NCBI GenBank assembly: GCA_964649535.1
Contig: CAZYTF010000001.1
Location: forward strand, 1,521 to 65,520
Reading direction: 5' to 3'
DNA length: 64,000 bases
Source: an uncultured Candidatus Saccharibacteria bacterium
GTDB lineage: Bacteria > Patescibacteriota > Minisyncoccia > Phycocordibacterales > UBA918
Position numbers and translations under genes: made by a program. This document shows positions 9,002 through 44,114 of this stretch, piece by piece (position 1 is the stretch's first letter; every line of letters starts with the position of its first letter). The notes under the pieces were generated by a model. It did no database searches, was not told the origin of the DNA, and worked only from the letters and a program-made list of their open reading frames with translations.

Positions 9002-9069
9002 GTTCTTCTCCTAATGTTCTGTGTTCCTGTGCGAGTATAGCAAAAATATGTGCATTAGACAGAGAATAA

Positions 9070-9102
9070 GAAAAAGCCGAACGCTTTGCGTTCGGCTTTT
9101 TC
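9070..9102 (-). terminator. Intrinsic terminator downstream of rpmB
   Basis: aagccgaacgc-tttg-cgttcggctt followed by a T-run. Confidence 0.55.
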
Positions 9103-9118
9103 TTGTATCTTCACAAAT

Positions 9119-9361
9119 CTAAATAAGTTTTGCTTCCTTAAGTGTTTTGTATGCACCGTTCTTTGCGATAGTTCGAAGTGCTTTAGTAGAAACATTTATT
9201 GTTACGTACTTATCAATCTCTGCAACAAATATTCGCTTCTTTTGAAGGTTTGGAGCTCGTTTCGTTTTGCCGCTAGGGTTAAACTGCGTCGCACGAGTAC
9301 GGTTGCTGTATTTTCCTCCGATTTGGGTTTTCTTCCCTGTGATGTCGCATTGCTTTGCCAT
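9119..9361 (-). CDS. rpmB: 50S ribosomal protein L28
   Basis: 80 aa. MAKQCDITGKKTQIGGKYSNRTRATQFNP is a typical bL28 N-terminus. Confidence 0.85.
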   Translation of the reverse strand: MAKQCDITGKKTQIGGKYSNRTRATQFNPSGKTKRAPNLQKKRIFVAEIDKYVTINVSTKALRTIAKNGAYKTLKEAKLI

Positions 9362-9441
9362 ATAATTGGTTTCTTTAGTGGCGCTATCGTACCATAGTCC
9401 TTTGATTCTGCAAGCCTTTTGCAGTAGTATAGTGCTTACTT

Positions 9442-10080
9442 ATGGAAGAACAAATCGCAATCATCATCGCACTTATAATATCAATCGTGCTTCATGAAAT
9501 GGCACACGGCTATGCAGCCAATGCGCTAGGTGACCCAACTGCCCGACTGCAGGGCCGACTTTCACCTAATCCGCTTGTACACATTGATCCCCTTGGTTCA
9601 GTTATTATTCCTGGATTTCTTATACTTGCGGGATCAGGAATTTTGTTTGGTTGGGCAAAACCAGTTCCGTATAATCCGTATAACTTACGAAATAGGAAAT
9701 GGGGTGAAGCGCTTGTTGCAGCGGCAGGTCCAGCCACAAACTTCCTCCTCGCCTTTATTTTTGCAATGATTATTCGTTCTGCAGATATGCTAGGACTTTC
9801 GGCATCGTTTGTTGAGCTTGCAAAATATATCGTGTACATCAACATTCTTCTCGCTTGTTTTAACCTTATTCCATTTCCTCCACTTGATGGGTCAAAGATT
9901 TTTCCAGCTTTGTTACCCTTTAGTGCTCAAATGCAATACCAGCGCTTCGTGAAGACTATCGAGGGATATGGATTTCTAGTTACTTTTATATTTATATTTA
10001 TATTTATAAACCTACTTTGGGGACCATTTTCTTTAATCCTGGGGAATATTTTCGAACTATTCACAGGGATGCGATTTTAA
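9442..10080 (+). CDS. Peptidase M50 family (site-2 protease-like) membrane zinc metalloprotease
   Basis: HEMAHG (HExxH) inside a TM helix and a polytopic topology. A second zinc-ligand aspartate LDGS lies in the predicted last TM helix. Confidence 0.8.
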   Translation: MEEQIAIIIALIISIVLHEMAHGYAANALGDPTARLQGRLSPNPLVHIDPLGSVIIPGFLILAGSGILFGWAKPVPYNPYNLRNRKWGEALVAAAGPATNFLLAFIFAMIIRSADMLGLSASFVELAKYIVYINILLACFNLIPFPPLDGSKIFPALLPFSAQMQYQRFVKTIEGYGFLVTFIFIFIFINLLWGPFSLILGNIFELFTGMRF

Positions 10081-10279
10081 TTAGTTAAAAACGCTGCTGC
10101 AACGTATGTAATTCGGTCATATAAAATTAAGGCATCTTGCGTATCACTCGCAGAGGGTGTGCAGGCCCCTCCTTGTTTGGAGTCGCTTCTGGGCTACATG
10201 CCTATCTGTGATGCACGCCGGTCAACACTGGCTTTTTTTCTTGCAAAAATAACTATATATAGTATTGTAGGCGAGCTTT

Positions 10280-10690
10280 ATGGCAACAATAAATCAATTA
10301 ACAAAACGAAGTCGAAAAGACAAATCAACTAAGTCAAAGGTTGGTGCGCTTCAAGCGGGTTTTAACTCAATTAAAAACCGTACAAACGAATACAACTCTC
10401 CGTTCAAACGAGGAGTGTGTACTCGAGTGACTACAAAGACTCCACGTAAGCCGAACTCTGCGATTCGAAAGATTGCACGTGTTCGACTTTCAAACGGTCA
10501 GGAAATCACAGCGTACATCCCAGGTATCGGCCATACTCTACAGGAACACTCTGTTGTGCTTGTGCGAGGAGGACGCGTGAAGGACATTGGTGTGAACTAT
10601 ACTGTTGTACGCGGTAAATACGATGCGACTGGTGTTGATGCTCGACGACAGGGGCGCTCACGTTACGGCGCGAAAATGCCAAAGGAGTAA
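10280..10690 (+). CDS. rpsL: 30S ribosomal protein S12
   Basis: ATINQL...RGVCTRV...[17 protein letters not shown]...IPGIGH...VRGGRVKD. Confidence 0.95.
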
Positions 10691-21676: not shown

Positions 21677-22087
21677 ATGGCAGATTCGTCACAAGATAGG
21701 AATCCTGGCAGCAATAACGAGCCAGTAATAAAAGACGTTTTGAAATACAATGTCGAAAATGCGCAGTCACAAATGCGAAAGGGTTTTTTGGAATTCCCTG
21801 TTCTTTTGATAATCGGTGCAAAGCCGACATATGCTCCAGATATTCTGAAGCAGCTTAAAAAGGCAAATTTATTAGTAGTAGAGGGTACATTATATCCTCT
21901 CTTATCGAGACTTAAGCGGCATGGCCTTGTTGGGTATGAATGGGAAGAGAGTAAAAGTGGCCCACCACGAAAAATGTACACCGTAACAGTCGAAGGAAAA
22001 GAAGTATTGCAGCAACTAGATGCGTCATGGAAAACTCTAGACACATCAGTAAATACACTAATCAAGCATTATGAAAAAGGTAATTAA
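21677..22087 (+). CDS. PadR-family transcriptional regulator
   Basis: GTLYPLLSRLKRHGLV...PRKMYTVT matches the PadR winged-helix signature. Confidence 0.8.
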   Translation: MADSSQDRNPGSNNEPVIKDVLKYNVENAQSQMRKGFLEFPVLLIIGAKPTYAPDILKQLKKANLLVVEGTLYPLLSRLKRHGLVGYEWEESKSGPPRKMYTVTVEGKEVLQQLDASWKTLDTSVNTLIKHYEKGN

Positions 22088-23306
22088 CATAACACTCGGA
22101 GGAATAGTTTTTGCTATAGAGCAAGATGCGTACGATACACTCGCTTCCTACCTTGAAGATATTAAAAAGAATCTTACTCTGACTGATGACGCCCAGGAAA
22201 TTGTGGGGGACATTGAAAGTGCAATTGCTGAGAAGTTTTCTGTACGCAAGCGTAATGAAAGGGTGGCAGTTACTGATGGGGATGTTGCGGCTGTGGTTTC
22301 TGAAATGGGCAGCCCTGCTGACTTTCGTGAAAGCGAAGATGCTGACACCACAAGTTCAGTGCATGCACAGGTTTCGTCAGACGCGACTGTTAAAAAGCGA
22401 CTGTATCGTGATACTGACGACGCTATCGTTGCTGGTGTTGCTTCGGGGCTCGCCAAGTATTTCGACATCGACCCTGTAATTGTGAGACTTGCTTTTGTTA
22501 TCTCAATTTTCTTCAATGGACTGGGCATCCTTGCATACAGTATCTTGTGGTTAGTTATTCCGAAGGCAGAAACCACTGCACAAAAATACGCTATGCGAGG
22601 TGAGAAGGTGACACTTAAAGAAATCACTGAACAAGTAAAAAAAAATTTGAAAGGTCTTGATGAAGTGGATATGAGTAGTGCAAAAAGTGCATGGACTCCA
22701 ATTCGAAATTTTCTCAACAAAGTATTTATTGTGCTCGGAATTATTGTGCTGGCCTTTGTAAGGATGCTTCGATATCTGGGAGGCTTCTTGGTTCTGATGG
22801 TCGGTGCTTTTTCACTCGCAGCACTAGTCTCTGTATATAGTGTTGTGTTGTTATCTGATCAAATATTTATACCTACTGAAGCTCAGACTGCTGTTAGCAT
22901 TATGGTCAGCAGCGTTTCAGGTATTCTAGCCATCGCCTCTTCTTTTGTTGTTTCTGCTATTCCGTTACTCTTTTTGATTTTGATTGGTGGAAGTTTGCTT
23001 GTAAAACGAAACTTATGTACTGCTTCGAAAACTATTACACTTGTAGTGGTATGGATTATCGCTATCGTACTTGCGGTTACAGCTTCAGCTCTGCAGGTGG
23101 AAAAGGTTATGCATGCTTTGAGTACTGATAGTTTTAAACATGACGAGTACCAAGTCTACATTAATCTAGGAGAAAGTGATGAAAATGAAGACTCAGTTGA
23201 GTTGCGGTGGGGGGATGAAGAAATGTCTATTGTATCTACAGAGTCACAAGATTTGCCTGATGCTCTAGCTTCAGAAGAAAGTTCAATTGAGTTCGATGCG
23301 CAATAA
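22071..23306 (+). CDS. PspC-domain membrane protein (DUF1700-like N-terminus)
   Basis: LYRDTDDAIVAGVASGLAKYFDIDPVIVRLAFV is the PspC domain. Followed by multiple TM helices and an acidic C-terminus. Overlaps PadR, an operon-like layout. Confidence 0.7.
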   Translation: MKKVINITLGGIVFAIEQDAYDTLASYLEDIKKNLTLTDDAQEIVGDIESAIAEKFSVRKRNERVAVTDGDVAAVVSEMGSPADFRESEDADTTSSVHAQVSSDATVKKRLYRDTDDAIVAGVASGLAKYFDIDPVIVRLAFVISIFFNGLGILAYSILWLVIPKAETTAQKYAMRGEKVTLKEITEQVKKNLKGLDEVDMSSAKSAWTPIRNFLNKVFIVLGIIVLAFVRMLRYLGGFLVLMVGAFSLAALVSVYSVVLLSDQIFIPTEAQTAVSIMVSSVSGILAIASSFVVSAIPLLFLILIGGSLLVKRNLCTASKTITLVVVWIIAIVLAVTASALQVEKVMHALSTDSFKHDEYQVYINLGESDENEDSVELRWGDEEMSIVSTESQDLPDALASEESSIEFDAQ

Positions 23307-23391
23307 AATTACAGGATAAAAATGTGTAGATTAAATCTACACATTGACTTATTTAGGTTGCAATTTGGCCATAAAGGGGGATAATTTAGAC

Positions 23392-23871
23392 ATGAGGTTA
23401 TTATCAAACATTTTGTTTGTCGTGAGTGCTATATTTATTTTGGCTTGCGTTGGGTTGTATTTATTTAGTACTGCCCAAATTGCAGAAGCTCCAGTGATGG
23501 ATGTAGGTAGTGTAGACACAGCTGAGTCAGTAGTCATGGTTTCAGTCAATTCTTTTGAAGAGTGTGCAGCAGTTGGTAATCCTGTAATGATGTCTAGTCC
23601 AGCGCAGTGTCGCCACAATGGTGTGCTTTATACTGAGGAAGCTGTAGTTTCAGCTGAGCCGCAAGAAGGTGAAACTGTTTGTTCTCCTGAATCGAAGTTA
23701 GCCGAAGTTTGCACAATGGAATATGCGCCAGTGTGTGGTTTGGTGCAGGTACAGTGCGTGACTACACCGTGTAACCATGTTCCGGAAACTTTTTCAAACG
23801 ACTGCATGGCGTGTGCACAAGAAAATGTTATTTCGTATAAAGAAGGTGAGTGTTCACTAGAAGTTCAATAA
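23392..23871 (+). CDS. Secreted Cys-rich protein with a Kazal-like domain
   Basis: Signal/TM anchor. CTMEYAPVCG...TFSNDCMAC matches the Kazal Cys spacing and the Y-x-PVCG and N-x-C motifs. AAAGGGGG ribosome-binding site. Confidence 0.55.
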   Translation: MRLLSNILFVVSAIFILACVGLYLFSTAQIAEAPVMDVGSVDTAESVVMVSVNSFEECAAVGNPVMMSSPAQCRHNGVLYTEEAVVSAEPQEGETVCSPESKLAEVCTMEYAPVCGLVQVQCVTTPCNHVPETFSNDCMACAQENVISYKEGECSLEVQ

Positions 23872-24197
23872 TTATGTTTGCAATAATAAAAGGTTATATA
23901 GCGTATATAAAAGATAATCCTGAGGGCTTTTGGTTTAAACGAAAAGCATACGGCTATGGTTGGACGCCAGCAACAATAGAAGGTTGGCTTGTGACACTCG
24001 GTTCTTTTCTCTTTATACTCGGCATTGTGTTGCGAGCTGACCGTCTGGAAATTAAAGAAAGTGAAGCGCTTATACAAGTAGTTATCCCGATGTTTACGGT
24101 GATAGGGTTTCTTATTTTGATTTGTTTAAAGACAGGAGAGTCTCCAAAGTGGCAGTGGAAATTGCCAAAAAAATATTTCGAAGACACTAAAGATTAG
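23850..24197 (+). CDS. Small membrane protein, unknown function
   Basis: Two predicted TM helices. The start codon is ambiguous. Confidence 0.35.
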   Translation: MFTRSSIIMFAIIKGYIAYIKDNPEGFWFKRKAYGYGWTPATIEGWLVTLGSFLFILGIVLRADRLEIKESEALIQVVIPMFTVIGFLILICLKTGESPKWQWKLPKKYFEDTKD

Positions 24198-26275
24198 ACT
24201 GCTTGCCATTTTTTTAAAAATTTTGATAGTACAAGTGAGGCAACAAAGATGACTACCGAAAGACCAAGATATTTTGGGTCGAGGGTATTAAATGATATTC
24301 CATCCATTTTGAATGATTCAATATCAAGTGATGCGCCGATTGAAACAAAAGTTGCGGTGCCCAAAAGAATCCCCACAAAAGTCGCTGCAATAAATGGAAC
24401 AAATGCAGTCTTTAGTATCCCCGCAATATAACTCACACCATCAAATGGCAGGAAGATAAGTCGCATGGTTAGTATTGAAATGAATGTATTTTTTTGGAGA
24501 GAGGTAACCCAATTCCCAATGATTGAATCTTCTGGAGATAATCCCTTTCCAAAAAAACGCCCAACGGCATACGCAACACCTGAAGATAAAGTTGCTGCGA
24601 GTATGGTAAGTACAGTACCGCCCCAGAAGCCAAAAAATATACCCGAAAGTATCGTGAGTGCTGTGGCAGGGAAGAAGGTAAGTGGTCGTAGCGCATATAC
24701 CAGCACATAAAGCAGTGGTCCCCAGATGGTCATGGTGATGAAGTCAAAAATCATCAGCGCTGTTTCTGTCGTACCCATTCCATGTGCAGTTTTATAAATA
24801 TAAAGCTGCAAAAGACCCATAAGCCATAGAGCTCCTACAAGAATTTTAGGAGTGTGTTTTTTGAGTAGATATAAAATGTCTGATTTTAAATTTGAAATTT
24901 GCTGGGCAAAGAAATGATCACCTGCTTTCTTGACGACAAGTGAGTACGTTGGATATGCATACATAATGTTGCGCAAACTCCACATGGAAATCTTTTTATC
25001 TAGAGCAAGTGTAAAAATTGATATGAGTTCACCTGCGGATGGTCCGATTATGTTCGCTCCAAGCACGGCCCCATTAAGCCTCTTTGCATACACGACGAGA
25101 AGCCCATCTGTGTCGCTATCTGTTTGAGCTCTATCGTTTTCTAGGAAAGGAACCTCAATGCGCATGACTTCTTTTTCCGTATATTTTTGAAGTGCGTCTT
25201 GGTATGACATGCCGACTTGTGCGATTTCTGGTTCAGTATAGGTTACTTTTGGAACTGCTTTTTTATTGTCTGCACGTAGGAATCCCTTTGAGACAACATG
25301 TGTAACAACTTGCCGTGCGCTATCGTTTGCCGTGTGCGTAAATTTTAAACGTTGTGCAATATCACCAACAGCGTATACATGTTTATTTGAGGTGCGGTGC
25401 TGTTTGTCGACTTGGATGCCGTATGTATCTGCTGCAATTCCTGCGGTGTCTAATCCTTTTGGGAAATTGGGCAAACGACCAACTGCATAGAGGATTTTGT
25501 CATACGCGACACGTACTTCAGTGAGTGTCGATTCGTTACCGTTTTCCTTGATCTCAAATAGGGCTTGTTTGTTTTCGACTTCTTTTATAAACGCATTGAG
25601 GTGTATGGTTATTCCTAAATTGGTGAAAACTTTTTGGATAATAGGCGATACTGCTTCGTCTTCGAGTCGCGCAAAACGGTCGTTTACATCGGCAATGGTT
25701 ACGTTACTCCCAAGCATTGCAAACGCTTGTCCCATCTCCATGCCAATCGGTCCTGCACCTACGATGAGTAATCGTTCGGGAACGGTTTCTAAATCAAAGA
25801 TATTTTGATTTGTGAGAATGTCGTTCTGGCTAATTCCAGGGACGTTAATCATTCGTGGGCTTGAGCCGGTCGCAATGACGGCATGTTTGTAACCAAACTC
25901 TGATTCTTCAATTTTGATAGTGCATGGTGCAACAAATTCCGCTTCTCCAAATTCAACGTCAATACCTTGAGCACGAAACGCCTCAGGAGTTTCGTGCTCC
26001 AAAATACCTTCAACCTTACTTCGTACATATACAAAAGCATTCGTGCGGTATGCTTCATTTTTTTTGTTTTTACCAGAGATAGTGAGTGCACTATGGAATG
26101 ATTTTGCATGATGTAGTAATGCTTTAGACGGTATACACCCGGAGTTGGTGCATTCTCCTCCCATATGTTCTTGTTCTACAAGCAATGTTTTTCTTCCAAT
26201 TTTAGCGAAACCGGTAGCGGCAGTAAGTCCGCCTGAGCCTGCACCAATCACCACAACATCGTAGTCTTTTTTCAT
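24194..26275 (-). CDS. Fusion protein: N-terminal FAD/NAD(P) pyridine-nucleotide-disulfide oxidoreductase (lipoamide/mercuric-reductase-like) plus C-terminal DedA/TVP38 (SNARE-associated) membrane domain
   Basis: DYDVVVIGAGSGG and the redox-active GGECTNSGCIPSK disulfide motif at the N-terminus. The C-terminal roughly 230 aa are polytopic with the DedA-like segment FPATALTILSGIFFG. Confidence 0.8.
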   Translation of the reverse strand: MKKDYDVVVIGAGSGGLTAATGFAKIGRKTLLVEQEHMGGECTNSGCIPSKALLHHAKSFHSALTISGKNKKNEAYRTNAFVYVRSKVEGILEHETPEAFRAQGIDVEFGEAEFVAPCTIKIEESEFGYKHAVIATGSSPRMINVPGISQNDILTNQNIFDLETVPERLLIVGAGPIGMEMGQAFAMLGSNVTIADVNDRFARLEDEAVSPIIQKVFTNLGITIHLNAFIKEVENKQALFEIKENGNESTLTEVRVAYDKILYAVGRLPNFPKGLDTAGIAADTYGIQVDKQHRTSNKHVYAVGDIAQRLKFTHTANDSARQVVTHVVSKGFLRADNKKAVPKVTYTEPEIAQVGMSYQDALQKYTEKEVMRIEVPFLENDRAQTDSDTDGLLVVYAKRLNGAVLGANIIGPSAGELISIFTLALDKKISMWSLRNIMYAYPTYSLVVKKAGDHFFAQQISNLKSDILYLLKKHTPKILVGALWLMGLLQLYIYKTAHGMGTTETALMIFDFITMTIWGPLLYVLVYALRPLTFFPATALTILSGIFFGFWGGTVLTILAATLSSGVAYAVGRFFGKGLSPEDSIIGNWVTSLQKNTFISILTMRLIFLPFDGVSYIAGILKTAFVPFIAATFVGILLGTATFVSIGASLDIESFKMDGISFNTLDPKYLGLSVVIFVASLVLSKFLKKWQAV

Positions 26276-26291
26276 GCATATAGTATATCGT

Positions 26292-26370
26292 ACGTGCTTT
26301 ACTTTTGTTTTTTTAAAAAAGAAAATACCTCATGTGTATTCTCTTTGAGAAATGTACATGAGGTATTGGA
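26292..26370 (-). terminator. 12-bp inverted repeat plus U-run downstream of the gene at 26404..26871
   Basis: aatacctcatgt ... acatgaggtatt, with an A/T run beyond it on the minus strand. Confidence 0.4.
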
Positions 26371-26403: not shown

Positions 26404-26871
26404 TCAACTACCCTCTGGTGATTTCACCAGCGTTCGGGGCGATGTCATTAACCCTGCTCTCAGGGTTTTATTGAAAGCATCTTGATCCGCTGCTCGACGC
26501 AAGCCATAATTAATGTAGAGTAGGTACTCTGTTTTTTCGGCAATATTTACGCTATTGAGGGTCAGTTTTCCCTCTTTCGCAACAAACGAGAACTCACAAA
26601 GTTTTTTTGGGCAAATCCCGGCAAAGTCAAACTGGACATCTTCGAAGAGGATGAATGGCAATTCAGCATCGTCTCCGATTGTTGCAATTGTTTGCATTTC
26701 GATTCGTTCGTCAGCCAAGGAGGTATTCCCTTGCGGGACTTGTTCTGCAAGGCTGATGTCAACAATTTTCCTGCTATCACCTCCCACGCTTCCTTGGTCA
26801 GCAAGGACCGGAGACAGATTTGCGAAAAAAATGACAGCAGCGAGGGCAGGTGTGATGAACTTACTACGCAT
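26404..26871 (-). CDS. Secreted hypothetical protein
   Basis: Signal peptide MRSKFITPALAAVIFFANLSPVLA. No family recognised. Confidence 0.45.
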   Translation of the reverse strand: MRSKFITPALAAVIFFANLSPVLADQGSVGGDSRKIVDISLAEQVPQGNTSLADERIEMQTIATIGDDAELPFILFEDVQFDFAGICPKKLCEFSFVAKEGKLTLNSVNIAEKTEYLLYINYGLRRAADQDAFNKTLRAGLMTSPRTLVKSPEGS

Positions 26872-27144
26872 TGGATTTTTCTCCGTGTAGCGCTGAGGGG
26901 GTTCGTAGGTACCCCTCAATATACCTGTAGCCCACCATAACATGTTTTATTTGAAAGTCATTAAATGTCCAAAATCACTAGATTTTGAGCTAAAGGCTGT
27001 TGCTAAAGGGTGTGTAATACCGTATAGTACTGGCCAACAAGCCTTACGGCTGTTTTCTATTTGCGTGAGTGGACAGCCTTGGCGTCAGCATTTGCACCAA
27101 TAGGGAGGTTATACATATATATTAGCTAAATATTATAAAAAATT

Positions 27145-41928: not shown

Positions 41929-42933
41929 ATGACATTTCGTGATAATCACACTAAGCCAGATGAAGGTTTTGAGGGGATTGAACAAAAAATTCTTTCCGAA
42001 TGGCCAAAATATCTTCTGCGTGCAGTACTCGCACTCGGCTTGATTTTTGCAGTTCTCAACAGCTGGTATACCGTCGATAAGGACGAGGAAGCGACAGTCC
42101 GCCGTTTCGGCGCACACATCGCAACCACTGGTCCTGGTCTGCACTTCATGATTCCCTTCGTGGATAAGGTGCAAAACACATCAGTGACAACTGTGCACCG
42201 GATTGAGATTGGTTTCCGCACAACGTCTGTTGAGGACAACACCCCTCAGTATGCAGCGTCTTCTGAAGAAGCTGAGATGCTGACTGCCGACGACAACATT
42301 GCGAACATTGATTTTGTCGTTCAGTACCGCAGCAGCGATGCTGCCAAGTGGCAGTTCAGTGTCATGGATCCAGAAAAGACACTGAATCTCATGGCTCAGG
42401 CTGCAATGCGATTGATTATTGGCCGGTCTGACTTTGACCGGGCAGCAACAATCGGTAAAGCTGAAATTCAAGACGAAGTCCGTGATGTGCTGCAAGCCTA
42501 TTCCGACTCTGTTGAAACGGGCGCGCAGATTGTTTCGGTTCAGCTTCAAGATGTGCAGCCGCCGGCACCTGTTATTGAAGCATTTAAGGACGTGGTGACC
42601 GCTCGTGAAGAGCGTGAGACTCTCGTCCAGGTCGCGAATCGACATGCAAACAGGGTATTGCCGCAGGCACGTGGTGAAGCTGCGCAGATTACAAACTCTG
42701 CAAATGCATACTCAAGCGAGCGTGTTGCAGAAGCTATGGGTGATGTTGCTCGGTTCAATGAAGTTTTGGTTAAGTACCAGGCTTCGCCGGAAGTTACTGC
42801 TCAACGACTGATTTTTGAAACGCAGGAAAAGGTCCTGCGTGGTCAGACAATCGTGGTGGACCCCAGTGAAGGTGGTCTTCTGAAATTCTTCAACATTGAT
42901 GGTTCGGGCATTCCGACCGCAACACAGAAGTAA
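41929..42933 (+). CDS. hflK: SPFH/band-7 protein HflK
   Basis: N-terminal TM helix and an SPFH core (VRRFGAHIATTGPGLHFMIPFVD...). About 52% GC, against about 42% in the flanks. Confidence 0.8.
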   Translation: MTFRDNHTKPDEGFEGIEQKILSEWPKYLLRAVLALGLIFAVLNSWYTVDKDEEATVRRFGAHIATTGPGLHFMIPFVDKVQNTSVTTVHRIEIGFRTTSVEDNTPQYAASSEEAEMLTADDNIANIDFVVQYRSSDAAKWQFSVMDPEKTLNLMAQAAMRLIIGRSDFDRAATIGKAEIQDEVRDVLQAYSDSVETGAQIVSVQLQDVQPPAPVIEAFKDVVTAREERETLVQVANRHANRVLPQARGEAAQITNSANAYSSERVAEAMGDVARFNEVLVKYQASPEVTAQRLIFETQEKVLRGQTIVVDPSEGGLLKFFNIDGSGIPTATQK

Positions 42934-42943
42934 GGGAAACGTT

Positions 42944-43690
42944 ATGACTCATGCTGATACAGCTACTCCTCGACCGCGCCGCCGGATGCGGAACAGAATC
43001 CTTTTGGGGATTCTCCTCGTCGCCATGGTTGGGCTGAAGACTAACCTGACTGTTGTCGATGAGACAGAACGGGCCGCCGTCTTCTTCTTCGGTGACCCTG
43101 TCCGTAATCTTGACGAGCCAGGTGTATACCTGACTCCGTTTTGGCAAACGGTCACCGTCATGGACAACCGCTATCGGTTGTACGATAGCAATCCAAGTGA
43201 AATCATCACTGCAGACAAAAAGACTGTGGTGACTGATGACTTCACGCTCTGGCGTATTGGGGACCCAACTAAGTTTATCCAAGCTGTTGGAACTCCAGCC
43301 TCGGCGCTGAAGCGCATCGATGACGACGTGTTCTCGCAACTCCGTCGCTCTTTTGGGGCACGGAACTATGAAGACATCGTGGTTAACGACCGAGAAGCTA
43401 TCATTGCGACAGTAACTGATCGTGCAGGCCGTACGTTGGCGACAATCTCGATTGATGTCGCCATGGTGCTCACAAACCGTGTTGAGCTGCCGCCTGAAAA
43501 CAAGCAGGCAGTCTACACACGGATGAGTGCTGAACGCCTGCAACAGGCGCAACAGTACCGTTCTGAAGGGGAAGCGGCTCGCTGCACAGAAAGCAGCGTA
43601 ACGTTCTTTAACGCAATACCCGGCGGGAATTTATTCCGCCGGTTTTTTTATACAAAACCATTGACTTTAGGCGTATTTTTGGTACTCTAG
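42944..43690 (+). CDS. hflC: SPFH protein HflC, apparently truncated at the C-terminus (possible pseudogene)
   Basis: TM plus SPFH core (ERAAVFFFGDPVRNLDEPGVYLTPFWQTV). The HflC-like sequence stops near 43590 (..QQYRSEGEAAR); the remaining reading frame runs through an intrinsic terminator hairpin. Confidence 0.6.
   Translation: MTHADTATPRPRRRMRNRILLGILLVAMVGLKTNLTVVDETERAAVFFFGDPVRNLDEPGVYLTPFWQTVTVMDNRYRLYDSNPSEIITADKKTVVTDDFTLWRIGDPTKFIQAVGTPASALKRIDDDVFSQLRRSFGARNYEDIVVNDREAIIATVTDRAGRTLATISIDVAMVLTNRVELPPENKQAVYTRMSAERLQQAQQYRSEGEAARCTESSVTFFNAIPGGNLFRRFFYTKPLTLGVFLVL
43619..43649 (+). terminator. Intrinsic terminator at the island's right edge
   Basis: cccggcgggaat-tt-attccgccgg followed by TTTTTTT. 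Confidence 0.6.
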
Positions 43691-43928
43691 TCCTCGACAT
43701 GAGATGTTGCTTCCTTCAGGAAAATACAGCTCGTGAAGGCGAGTTTTATTTGAAAACGAGCCGGATTATTAGGGAGTAAGTTGTGACATCTTCACAATAC
43801 TGCTCTAAAACTAAGTACGAGAAGTGGAGTAACTTCGAGTTCCGACGTCCAGCAATTTGCTCTAGGAAAGGAGCAAATTGGGACGTAAATTCAACATAGT
43901 CGCTTCGCTCCTTGTTTCATTTAATTTA

Positions 43929-44114
43929 ATGGCACGAAAGTCAATCATTATTCGGTCCCTACGGGTTCCGAAATTCAAGTCTCGTGTTGTCCGACGTTGC
44001 AACCAGTGTGGTCGTAAACGAGGATACATGCGCGATTTTGACCTTTGTCGTATTTGCTTTAGAGAGCAAGCGAACGAAGGACATATACCAGGTATAAAGA
44101 AATCATCATGGTAA
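43929..44114 (+). CDS. rpsN: 30S ribosomal protein S14, type Z (61 aa, zinc-binding)
   Basis: MARKSIIIRSL...CNQCGRKRGYMRDFDLCRICFRE. Confidence 0.9.
   Translation: MARKSIIIRSLRVPKFKSRVVRRCNQCGRKRGYMRDFDLCRICFREQANEGHIPGIKKSSW

Follow-up and report, generated by a model that had tools for sequence, protein, structure and literature searches.

The fusion gene and the two halves of its product

The DNA analysed in this study is a stretch of 64,000 nucleotides (contig CAZYTF010000001.1, from an uncultured Candidatus Saccharibacteria bacterium of the Patescibacteriota), referred to below as the window, and we report the characterisation of one gene on its minus strand, in which a flavoprotein disulfide reductase (FDR) is fused to a membrane domain of the DedA family. 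The complete coding sequence (24194..26275, minus strand, stop codon at 24194-24196 included) is one ATG-to-stop frame of 693 codons with zero internal stops, and the coordinates of the features within it were confirmed by translating the window. Pfam searches of the 693-aa product identified, all above their gathering scores, Pyr_redox_2 (PF07992) at residues 5-319 (E = 1.8e-62), Pyr_redox (PF00070) at residues 168-237, Pyr_redox_dim (PF02852) at residues 341-449 (E = 1.2e-21) and VTT_dom (PF09335) at residues 535-648 (E = 4.7e-18; 66.3 bits, gathering score 33.9; match to profile positions 1-122 of 123). A preliminary description of this DNA, made from the letters alone, had proposed a single protein with an N-terminal reductase followed by a DedA/TVP38 domain, and had named the Pfam search as a check. 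The uninterrupted frame and the detection of both domains bear this out, as do the boundaries, with the reductase at residues 1-445 and the VTT/DedA domain at residues 476-693.

The fusion was confirmed to be real and not the product of a frameshift or an assembly artefact, because the identical protein is present in independent assemblies and more than 120 full-length orthologues occur in Patescibacteria. Identical sequences were obtained from NCBI, JGI, ENA and Logan sources, including a 165 kb ENA contig and a separate Logan contig. The best 120 database homologues are all 683-711 aa long, are 57-67% identical to the query over 98-100% of its length, and all carry PF09335; their named sources are Patescibacteria and Candidatus Kaiserbacteria, and the nearest species-representative genomes are Paceibacteria. 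The frameshift or stop between the two halves, given in the preliminary description as a possible refutation, is thus absent. Taken alone, the gene in the window is an unremarkable orthologue within a large family that has been annotated before, and the architecture itself is not new, since the combination of PF07992 and PF02852 has been catalogued as the commonest fusion of COG0398 DedAs, with no function assigned ('Three Bacterial DedA Subfamilies', mBio 2023; PMC10127716). What is added here to the catalogued fusion are the signatures of the reductase clade, its linkage to DedA across phyla and the context of partner genes.

Residues 1-445 (24941..26275, minus strand) form a group-1 FDR module with FAD-binding, NAD(P)H-binding and dimerisation domains, as indicated by PF07992, PF00070 and PF02852, by similarity to PDB entry 1EBD, by Foldseek and by an AlphaFold2 (AF2) model. 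Conservation was assessed in an alignment of 66 Patescibacteria homologues (A1) and in a second alignment of 30 diverse fusions, the query and 29 others (A2). The FAD-binding Rossmann motif VVVIGAGSGGL (residues 7-17; 26225..26257, minus strand) contains GAGSGG at residues 11-16 as its GxGxxG sequence, with G11, G13 and G16 invariant, and the NAD(P)H-binding Rossmann motif RLLIVGAGPIG (residues 168-178; 25742..25774, minus strand) contains GAGPIG at residues 173-178, with G173, G175, G178 and E180 invariant. The redox-active disulfide motif GGECTNSGCIPSK (residues 39-51; 26123..26161, minus strand) includes Cys42-TNSG-Cys47, the CxxxxC to which the preliminary description had drawn attention, and neither cysteine varies in A1 (66 sequences) or A2 (30). 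The only other conserved cysteine is Cys118, at 80%; neither the linker nor the DedA half has a conserved cysteine in A1 or A2. After the second strand of the NAD domain, most of the distant fusions have Arg-Ser or Arg-Gly, like NADPH-dependent enzymes, in place of which the Patescibacteria clade has TIADVNDRFARLED; this may reflect use of NADH, the cofactor preference being uncertain.

The site of the HxxxxE dyad distinguishes this reductase from its relatives. The pair is a hallmark of group-1 FDRs and is retained in RclA as His426-Glu431 (PMC10587081). HMMER alignments to lipoamide dehydrogenase (LipDH) structures placed YAYPTYSL (residues 439-446; 24938..24961, minus strand) at this site, against HAHPTLGE or HAHPTLSE in LipDH, with Tyr441 in place of His and Leu446 in place of Glu. 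Both Tyr441 and Pro442 are invariant in A1 and in the 30 divergent fusions of A2, the Glu position being variable, and 74 of the 77 reductases aligned from the loci described below, nearly all of which are DedA-linked, have Tyr where His would stand. Of the features of group-1 FDRs, therefore, the Rossmann motifs, PF02852 and CxxxxC were found and the HxxxxE dyad was not, so that the earlier designation as a 'class-I' enzyme holds for the FAD, NAD(P)H and dimerisation domains and the CxxxxC, but the protein is not a typical member, its His-Glu dyad having been replaced.

A Tyr at the His site is functional in mercuric reductase (MerA), where it corresponds to Tyr441' of Tn501 MerA and Tyr437 of GbsMerA, the Y437F variant of which is inactive (PMC10587081). 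Tyr441 of the query falls at RC607 position 605, the site of the catalytic His of glutathione reductase and LipDH. The second active-site Tyr of MerA (Tyr264 in RC607, Tyr100 in the Tn501 core) would, judged by its spacing from Cys42 only and without alignment, lie near the invariant Phe100. The C-terminal vicinal Cys pair that is a signature of MerA (Cys628/629 in RC607 numbering; PMC8261052) is absent from the query reductase and from the conserved Cys set of A1, and the short GbsMerA also lacks this pair (PMC10587081).

Searches against NCBIfam revealed no equivalog whose cut-off is reached by the reductase. The best model was NF004991 'FAD-containing oxidoreductase' (PRK06370.1-3, a subfamily model without a functional name), at 387.3 bits against a cut-off of 620; the lipoamide dehydrogenase model TIGR01350 gave 351.6 bits (cut-off 408.8) and the MerA model TIGR02053 294.4 bits (cut-off 454.45), and the RclA and Har models NF040477 and NF041853 gave 200-220 bits (RclA 200) against cut-offs of 740 and 650. 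NF004991 was also the best model for four split DedA-linked reductases (325-459 bits, again below 620), and the match extends into their clade-specific C-terminal tail. In the PDB, the nearest sequence relatives are LipDH (1EBD, E = 7e-56), then MerA, glutathione reductase and RclA/Har-type enzymes. The AF2 model of the fusion protein has a pLDDT (predicted local distance difference test) of 86.4 and a predicted TM-score (pTM) of 0.78, most of the reductase part exceeding a pLDDT of 88, and Foldseek searches with it gave target-normalised TM-scores of 0.83-0.90 to LipDH and MerA structures.

Comparison with the characterised families showed where likeness ends. LipDH (E3; TIGR01350; PDB 1EBD, 2EQ7 and 1ZMC) shares with the query its FAD, NAD and dimerisation domains and the CxxxxC (TM-score about 0.88), whereas the query has YxxxxL for HxxxxE, a score below the cut-off, a clade-specific C-terminal helix and a membrane domain. 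MerA (GbsMerA, PMC10587081; Tn501 core, PDB 1ZK7) has the Tyr at the catalytic His site and the redox Cys pair in common with the query, and its association with the membrane transporter MerT follows a logic comparable to that of a reductase with DedA; the query differs from MerA in lacking vicinal C-terminal cysteines, an NmerA domain and a mer operon, and does not reach TIGR02053. RclA and Har (PDB 6KGY and 8AJJ), which reduce hypothiocyanous acid (HOSCN) or reactive chlorine species in oxidant defence, are likewise short group-1 FDRs, but RclA keeps the His-Glu pair, the query scores far below the cut-offs of both families, and neither has a DedA partner. E. coli rclA presumably lies in an operon with the membrane-protein gene rclC. 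Since the His-Glu dyad is replaced by Tyr and the MerA vicinal Cys pair is absent, the reductase is neither E3 nor MerA and belongs to a clade of its own with MerA-like active-site chemistry. Some relatives are named 'mercuric reductase', 'soluble pyridine nucleotide transhydrogenase' or 'E3' in databases, whose annotation pipelines detect both domains, and homologues of 57-61% identity are labelled 'pyruvate/2-oxoglutarate dehydrogenase complex dihydrolipoamide dehydrogenase (E3) component/unch…' by JGI (the name is incomplete). As the dyad is absent and no equivalog cut-off is reached, the names E3/dihydrolipoyl dehydrogenase and mercuric reductase are not justified; the labels E3/LipDH, MerA, RclA/Har and soluble transhydrogenase were all ruled out by cut-offs and missing signatures.

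The two halves are joined by a clade-specific C-terminal helix (AGDHFFAQQI...) and a basic juxtamembrane segment (residues 446-475; 24851..24940, minus strand), recognised from the AF2 model, charge counts and a shared motif. In the model, a helix at 446-461 is followed directly by a 35-residue helix at 463-497, which forms the first transmembrane segment (TM1), so that the last reductase helix would run straight into TM1 and hold the enzyme right at the inner face of the membrane. The motif A-D-x-[FW]-[LFM]-x-[EQ]-T with a basic tail is present in fused and split DedA-linked reductases and absent from unlinked paralogues.

Residues 476-693 (24197..24850, minus strand) constitute a TVP38/YdjX-type (COG0398) DedA (VTT) membrane domain, delimited by PF09335, the AF2 helices, hydropathy and positive-inside counts in 66 homologues. 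The predicted topology is TM1 at 476-497, a first re-entrant loop, TM2 at 537-571, a cytoplasmic loop at 572-606, a second re-entrant loop, TM3 at 625-648 and TM4 at 667-687, giving an in-out-in-out-in arrangement with four full spans, two putative re-entrant loops and the C-terminus inside. Putative loop 1, GPLLYVLVYALRPLTFFP (residues 519-536; 24668..24721, minus strand), has conserved Y527, R530, P531 and P536; in putative loop 2, IFLPFDGVSYIAGILKTA (residues 607-624; 24404..24457, minus strand), P610, D612 and G619, together with R605 just upstream, are invariant even in A2. The AF2 model has short helices at 519-533 and 611-620 ahead of long helices at 537-576 and 625-648. Mean Lys+Arg counts in the 66 homologues were 6.2 before TM1, 0.1 in loop 498-518, 5.6 in loop 572-606, 0.7 in loop 649-666 and 2.9 in the C-terminal tail. 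The flavoprotein half faces the cytoplasm, as shown by the lack of a signal peptide, the start of the Rossmann fold at residue 7 and a charge pattern that follows the positive-inside rule; the topology check proposed in the preliminary description is answered in this sense.

COG0398 proteins are distinguished by a first re-entrant loop without acidic residues and by one conserved basic residue at the second (PMC10127716). In the 66 sequences, mean Asp+Glu in loop 1 was 0.0, and R605 is the sole conserved basic residue near loop 2. A search of 1.84e9 representative proteins with the DedA half gave 2786 relatives at E<=1e-3, a set in which long fusions and stand-alone proteins of 230-250 aa are intermixed. 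The PDB contains no sequence relative of the DedA half, and Foldseek with the whole model matched the reductase half only, leaving the C-terminal third uncovered. In A2, the reductase has a mean pairwise identity of 0.36, the pairs of re-entrant loop and TM helix reach 0.44-0.46, and TM1 and the outer loops have 0.18-0.26. In the DedA half, W484, G549, S564, R605, P610, D612, G619 and G647 are invariant in A2, and conservation within DedA peaks in the cytoplasmic loop 572-606 for the Patescibacteria clade (mean pairwise identity 0.68). Judged by these identities, the DedA core is constrained at least as strongly as the reductase, and does not drift as a passive anchor would.

Linkage of reductase and DedA across phyla, and recurring partner genes

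Relatives were collected by a scan of one genome per GTDB species, which gave 80 loci (L numbers below), each half being located by its own hidden Markov model (HMM). Fused genes with the reductase before DedA were found in all Patescibacteria lineages sampled and in several Chlamydiota, and adjacent genes in the same order in most Chlamydiota. The opposite order, DedA then reductase, occurs as adjacent genes in Chloroflexota, Trueperaceae (Deinococcota) and Acidimicrobiales (Actinomycetota), and Verrucomicrobiota and one Chloroflexota have the arrangement DedA-reductase-DedA. The distribution across phyla, raised in the preliminary description for the fusion, thus shows that this reductase clade is coupled to TVP38-type DedA proteins in at least six phyla, as fused or as adjacent genes, the two halves being obligate partners.

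The 150 best matches obtained with the DedA half include 30 long proteins (656-744 aa), every one with DedA at the C-terminus, and 29 of the 30 keep both CxxxxC and Tyr; P0131 has lost both and was for this reason excluded from A2. The RefSeq name 'bifunctional TVP38/TMEM64 family protein/FAD-dependent oxidoreductase' would imply fusions with DedA first, but no N-terminal-DedA fusion was present among these 30 proteins, and where DedA comes first in Chloroflexota, Deinococcota and Actinomycetota, it is encoded by a gene of its own. Comparison of fused with split reductases within Chlamydiota gave identities of 53-66%, so fusion and fission have been recent and recurrent. Many of the loci have neighbouring genes that share a few to some tens of bases, an overlap compatible with co-translation, and the flanking genes vary; as the internal genes overlap while the flanks differ, the set behaves as a self-contained module.

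Two signatures accompany DedA linkage, namely Tyr at the His position and the motif of the additional C-terminal helix. The unlinked paralogues found in these loci all lack the tail and most lack the Tyr (HPTxxE in L052 and L006), the Tyr being present without the tail in the unlinked copies of L070 and of L065 (12262-13617). In a Chlamydiae metagenome-assembled genome (L063), a second flavoprotein reductase (9019-10419, plus strand) lies directly after a reductase-DedA-phosphotransferase module; it ends in ...SKLSCCI and has FPTLSE at the dyad site. Since this MerA-type SCCI paralogue sits beside the module, the DedA-linked clade is distinct from MerA.

Some irregular reading frames were observed among the relatives. 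An otherwise orthologous fusion gene in the Paceibacteria genome JTS-AC487 has an in-frame stop within its DedA half (L003, 7650-7654), which could represent a pseudogene, a sequencing error or recoding. The Gracilibacteria fusion genes in L031, L032, L036 and L039 appear fragmented under translation table 11; Gracilibacteria decode UGA as Gly (code 25), which is the likely cause of the apparent splits, and these were on this ground dismissed as table-11 translation artefacts.

The most frequent partner is a CDP-alcohol phosphotransferase (PF01066) of about 200 aa, which adjoins the reductase/DedA pair in 29 of the 80 loci, mostly on the same strand and often with overlapping stop and start codons. 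These loci belong to Chlamydiota, Verrucomicrobiota, Chloroflexota, Deinococcota, Actinomycetota and one Pacebacteria lineage (5-6 phyla). The motif D-x2-D-G-x2-[AS]-R-x8-G-x3-D-x3-D is intact in the partner phosphotransferase. It reached no NCBIfam equivalog; its best scores were to archaetidylinositol-phosphate and phosphatidylinositol-phosphate synthases (46-76 bits where the cut-offs are 170-180; four of five proteins tested gave 64-76). An identity as PgsA or PssA was rejected on the NCBIfam comparison, the protein being weakly similar to phosphatidylinositol-phosphate and archaetidylinositol-phosphate synthases.

Of 81 loci, 16 contain genes for extracytoplasmic methionine sulfoxide reductases (Msr; MsrA or MsrB) or for CcdA with thioredoxin, and these are arranged in at least four different ways. 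Four of the loci, from Chlamydiota, encode a secreted MsrA divergently from the reductase; in three of the four a secreted MsrB gene abuts or overlaps the reductase start, and the fourth (L047) has one divergent MsrA-MsrB fusion gene. Five Paceibacteria loci have, immediately upstream of the fusion and on its strand, a gene for a membrane thioredoxin-like protein and a CcdA(DsbD_TM)::DUF3179 gene, and other Patescibacteria and Gracilibacteria loci have thioredoxin-like and CcdA genes in other arrangements. CcdA (DsbD_TM) fused to extracytoplasmic DUF3179 and paired with a membrane-anchored thioredoxin-like protein was observed in L004, L006, L012, L013, L022, L033 and L035, and a stand-alone DUF3179 gene lies beside the module in Chloroflexota L079.

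Surroundings of the gene in the window

In the window and in close relatives, the fusion gene lies beside or within a cluster of ribosomal-protein and elongation-factor genes (rpsL, rpsG, fusA, tuf, rpsJ), with neighbours that vary between genomes. In close relatives a glutamate dehydrogenase gene is often the divergent neighbour; ELFV_dehydrog genes divergent from the fusion were located in L083 (8559-9887) and L085 (8582-9907), and a glutamate dehydrogenase or putative homologue of about 442 aa lies next to the fusion in L005, L008, L009, L010, L014 and L036 (for example L009, 4521-5849). Such a neighbour could supply NAD(P)H locally, or its position could reflect synteny alone.

Upstream of the fusion lies a gene for a secreted protein of 179 aa (26404..26943), and between the two a hairpin with a U-tract, UUUUCUUUUUU (26313..26367, minus strand), was found by reading and folding the sequence, not by a consensus scan; its folding energy is -19.8 kcal/mol (z = -4.98 against shuffled sequences). 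The hairpin is probably the intrinsic terminator of the 179-aa gene; the fusion gene would then be transcribed as a unit of its own. About 40 nt separate the hairpin and U-tract from the ATG of the fusion, and a TATACT box lies about 5 nt upstream of this ATG, a position that would suggest a very short or absent leader. In consensus scans around the gene, matches to promoters and terminators were no more frequent than in shuffled sequence. Owing to the probable terminator upstream and a convergent gene downstream, the fusion gene looks monocistronic.

The convergent gene (23850-24197, plus strand) encodes a small membrane protein of 115 aa from a GTG start (107 aa as called elsewhere), and its 3' end overlaps that of the fusion gene by 4 nt. 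The protein matched no Pfam family; homologues occur at varying distances in 11 related Patescibacteria loci, and its place beside the fusion probably reflects synteny rather than partnership. Further along, 23344-23871 (plus strand) encodes a 175-aa protein with an N-terminal TM or signal segment, a Cys-rich C-terminus and a sub-threshold match to Kazal-type inhibitors (18.7 bits against 21). At 21677-23306 (plus strand), the gene for a PadR-family regulator overlaps the start of a gene for a PspC-domain/LiaF-like membrane protein, a putative envelope-stress pair, which is followed at 23321-23345 by a perfect palindrome with an 11-bp stem resembling a bidirectional terminator. Rfam identified no RNA family at its gathering score within window positions 1-64000. 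The 2-kb bin 42001-44000 has a G+C fraction of 0.50, against 0.40-0.48 in the rest of the window.

Function of the reductase-DedA pair

The preliminary description had called the function of such fusions unknown, and indeed none is assigned in the open-access papers and preprints searched. In the literature, COG0398 DedAs are likened to TMEM41B and VMP1, phospholipid scramblases of eukaryotes (PMC10127716), and DedA proteins are described as lipid transporters that are also found fused to CDP-OH phosphatidyltransferases (PMC10193950). TMEM41B, VMP1 and the bacterial proteins UptA and PetA share with the query the VTT/DedA domain, whose two re-entrant loops are putative in the query, and their role in lipid movement is established (PMC10127716, PMC10193950), but they are stand-alone proteins, none is redox-coupled, and UptA and PetA belong to the COG0586 group. 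Fusions of DedA to CDP-OH phosphatidyltransferase, MprF synthase and phospholipase D (PMC10193950, Fig. 5) parallel the operons of DedA, reductase and phosphotransferase reported here; those fusions have two domains and no flavoprotein, whereas here the phosphotransferase is a separate gene and is absent near the gene in the window. The COG0398 fusions catalogued in PMC10127716 have the same architecture as the query; that account gives no description of the reductase clade and no gene context, and draws a loose link to aerobic metabolism, whereas the query is from Patescibacteria. Searches of open-access papers and preprints for the triad of reductase, DedA and phosphotransferase, for Msr with DedA and for Patescibacteria with DedA gave nothing relevant, and no description was found there of the clade signatures, the equivalence of split and fused forms in both orders, the coupled phosphotransferase or the Msr/CcdA context.

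The reading that we favour, and in which we place about as much belief as doubt, is that a cytoplasm-facing reductase acts on a substrate handled by its DedA partner, in the redox maintenance of the membrane or envelope. Residues 1-445 would be a cytoplasmic FDR-type enzyme, presumably homodimeric like its relatives, in which electrons would pass from NAD(P)H to FAD, to the Cys42-Cys47 redox pair and on to the substrate. The enzyme would be held on the inner membrane face beside the cytoplasmic loop and second re-entrant loop of DedA, and the DedA half may be a working transporter or scramblase and more than an anchor, presenting or conducting a membrane-associated substrate, such as the head group of a lipid or a small molecule in transit through the membrane, which the reductase half would then reduce. 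By analogy with mercuric reductase, in which the His-Glu pair is likewise replaced by Tyr, here invariant, lipoamide, glutathione disulfide and other ordinary soluble disulfides are probably not the substrate. The role in membrane-lipid or envelope redox is suggested by the partners in other phyla (CDP-alcohol phosphotransferase, secreted MsrA/MsrB, CcdA with thioredoxin-like proteins) together with the literature on lipid transport by DedA proteins. Dimerisation, catalytic activity, coupling of reduction to transport and the physiological role are all inferred.

Several points weigh against this reading. Fusion and neighbourhood show functional linkage, not its kind, and the pattern would be no different under regulation or simple co-localisation. 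Contact of the active site of the reductase with the cavity of DedA is, in this reading, presumed. The Msr/CcdA association is seen in only about 20% of the loci, several of which are close relatives. In blastp and HMM searches of the 64-kb window, no Msr, CcdA, thioredoxin-like or CDP-alcohol phosphotransferase gene was found, nor are any of the informative partner genes near the fusion in its closest relatives, and because of this absence the functional context is borrowed from distant relatives (30-40% identity). Patescibacteria, moreover, are mostly fermentative with reduced lipid metabolism, a poor fit to a connection between COG0398 DedAs and aerobic metabolism. That connection is a proposal of PMC10127716.

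Alternatively, the DedA half could serve as an anchor only, keeping at the inner membrane a general NAD(P)H reductase, such as a diaphorase, a HOSCN-type enzyme like RclA/Har, or a quinone or lipid-peroxide reductase, which we consider unlikely. RclA and Har are indeed group-1 FDRs of similar size, the query obtains 200-220 bits on their NCBIfam models, S. aureus MerA/Har is among the fold matches, and the Msr/CcdA neighbours would fit a shared oxidative-stress regulon without mechanistic coupling. The conservation of the DedA core motifs, equal to that of the enzyme or higher, argues against it, as does the occurrence of the pair as split genes in both orders and as DedA-reductase-DedA, since a mere anchor would not be expected to be retained as a separate gene; RclA, besides, retains the His-Glu dyad that the DedA-linked clade has lost, and the scores are far under the RclA/Har cut-offs of 740 and 650 bits.

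It is likewise improbable that the pair is a metal or metalloid detoxification unit resembling MerT/MerA, in which DedA would conduct selenite, tellurite, Cu(II), Ag(I) or Hg(II) and the reductase would reduce it on arrival. The replacement of the catalytic His by Tyr, the same as that in Tn501 MerA (Tyr441') and GbsMerA (Tyr437), the latter inactive as Y437F and also without the C-terminal Cys pair (PMC10587081), speaks for such a unit, and MerA is among the best family and fold matches. Nevertheless, the query has neither the C-terminal vicinal Cys pair nor an NmerA domain, no conserved Cys exists outside Cys42/Cys47 in the linker or the DedA half, and TIGR02053 is not reached (294 against 454). 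No mer, ars or metal-regulator genes recur among the locus neighbours, the true MerA-like (SCCI) paralogue beside the module in L063 shows two distinct enzymes, and near-universal retention in the small genomes of Patescibacteria is housekeeping-like and not that of an accessory resistance. In favour of such a unit, on the other hand, Ledgham and colleagues reportedly linked a DedA protein to selenite resistance in 2005. Flavoproteins of this class are also reported to reduce tellurite (PMC4960239).

A third possibility, which appears quite improbable, is a redox-gated scramblase, in which the flavoprotein would mainly sense NAD(P)H/NAD(P)+ or the thiol redox state and switch scrambling by DedA rather than turn over a substrate. 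Fusion and operon linkage are equally compatible with regulation, and a regulatory interface would fit the cytoplasmic loop 572-606, the part of DedA with the highest conservation (0.68) in the Patescibacteria clade. However, both cysteines, the FAD and NAD motifs and Tyr441 are invariant over divergent sequences, whereas non-catalytic sensors usually degenerate, and we know of no precedent for such a role among group-1 FDRs, which counts further against it.

Very unlikely, although more far-reaching, is a lipid-borne route in which the reductase, DedA and, where present, the CDP-alcohol phosphotransferase carry reducing power across the cytoplasmic membrane. The phosphotransferase would make a phospholipid with a thiol/disulfide or other redox-active head group, DedA would flip this lipid between leaflets, and the tethered flavoprotein would re-reduce it with NAD(P)H at the inner face. 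If true, the shuttle would feed extracytoplasmic MsrA/MsrB and thioredoxin-like proteins, as a lipid-based analogue of DsbD/CcdA. Finally, that the protein is an incidentally membrane-anchored E3 (dihydrolipoyl dehydrogenase) of a 2-oxoacid dehydrogenase or glycine-cleavage system is effectively refuted in spite of the LipDH sequence and fold matches, the best in the PDB, the TIGR01350 score of 351.6 bits and the JGI name, since that score is below the cut-off of 408.8, the His-Glu dyad needed for dithiol oxidation is absent across the clade, canonical HPTxxE paralogues coexist in some of the same loci, and no E1, E2 or glycine-cleavage genes were present among the neighbours examined.

DedA proteins are very widespread membrane proteins of poorly understood function, and for the COG0398 branch, the nearest to human TMEM41B/VMP1, no bacterial substrate is known. 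Few handles are available on what this branch transports, and one of them is an enzyme partner tied to it by fusion or within operons in many phyla. The dedicated Tyr reductase clade, its docking helix, the phosphotransferase and the Msr/CcdA neighbours suggest that COG0398 DedAs handle a redox-relevant membrane substrate, and this comparative evidence makes of a catalogued fusion a testable proposition on what these proteins handle. The retention of the pair in very many small-genome Patescibacteria suggests that it may matter for the way in which these episymbionts maintain a membrane that they largely do not build themselves.

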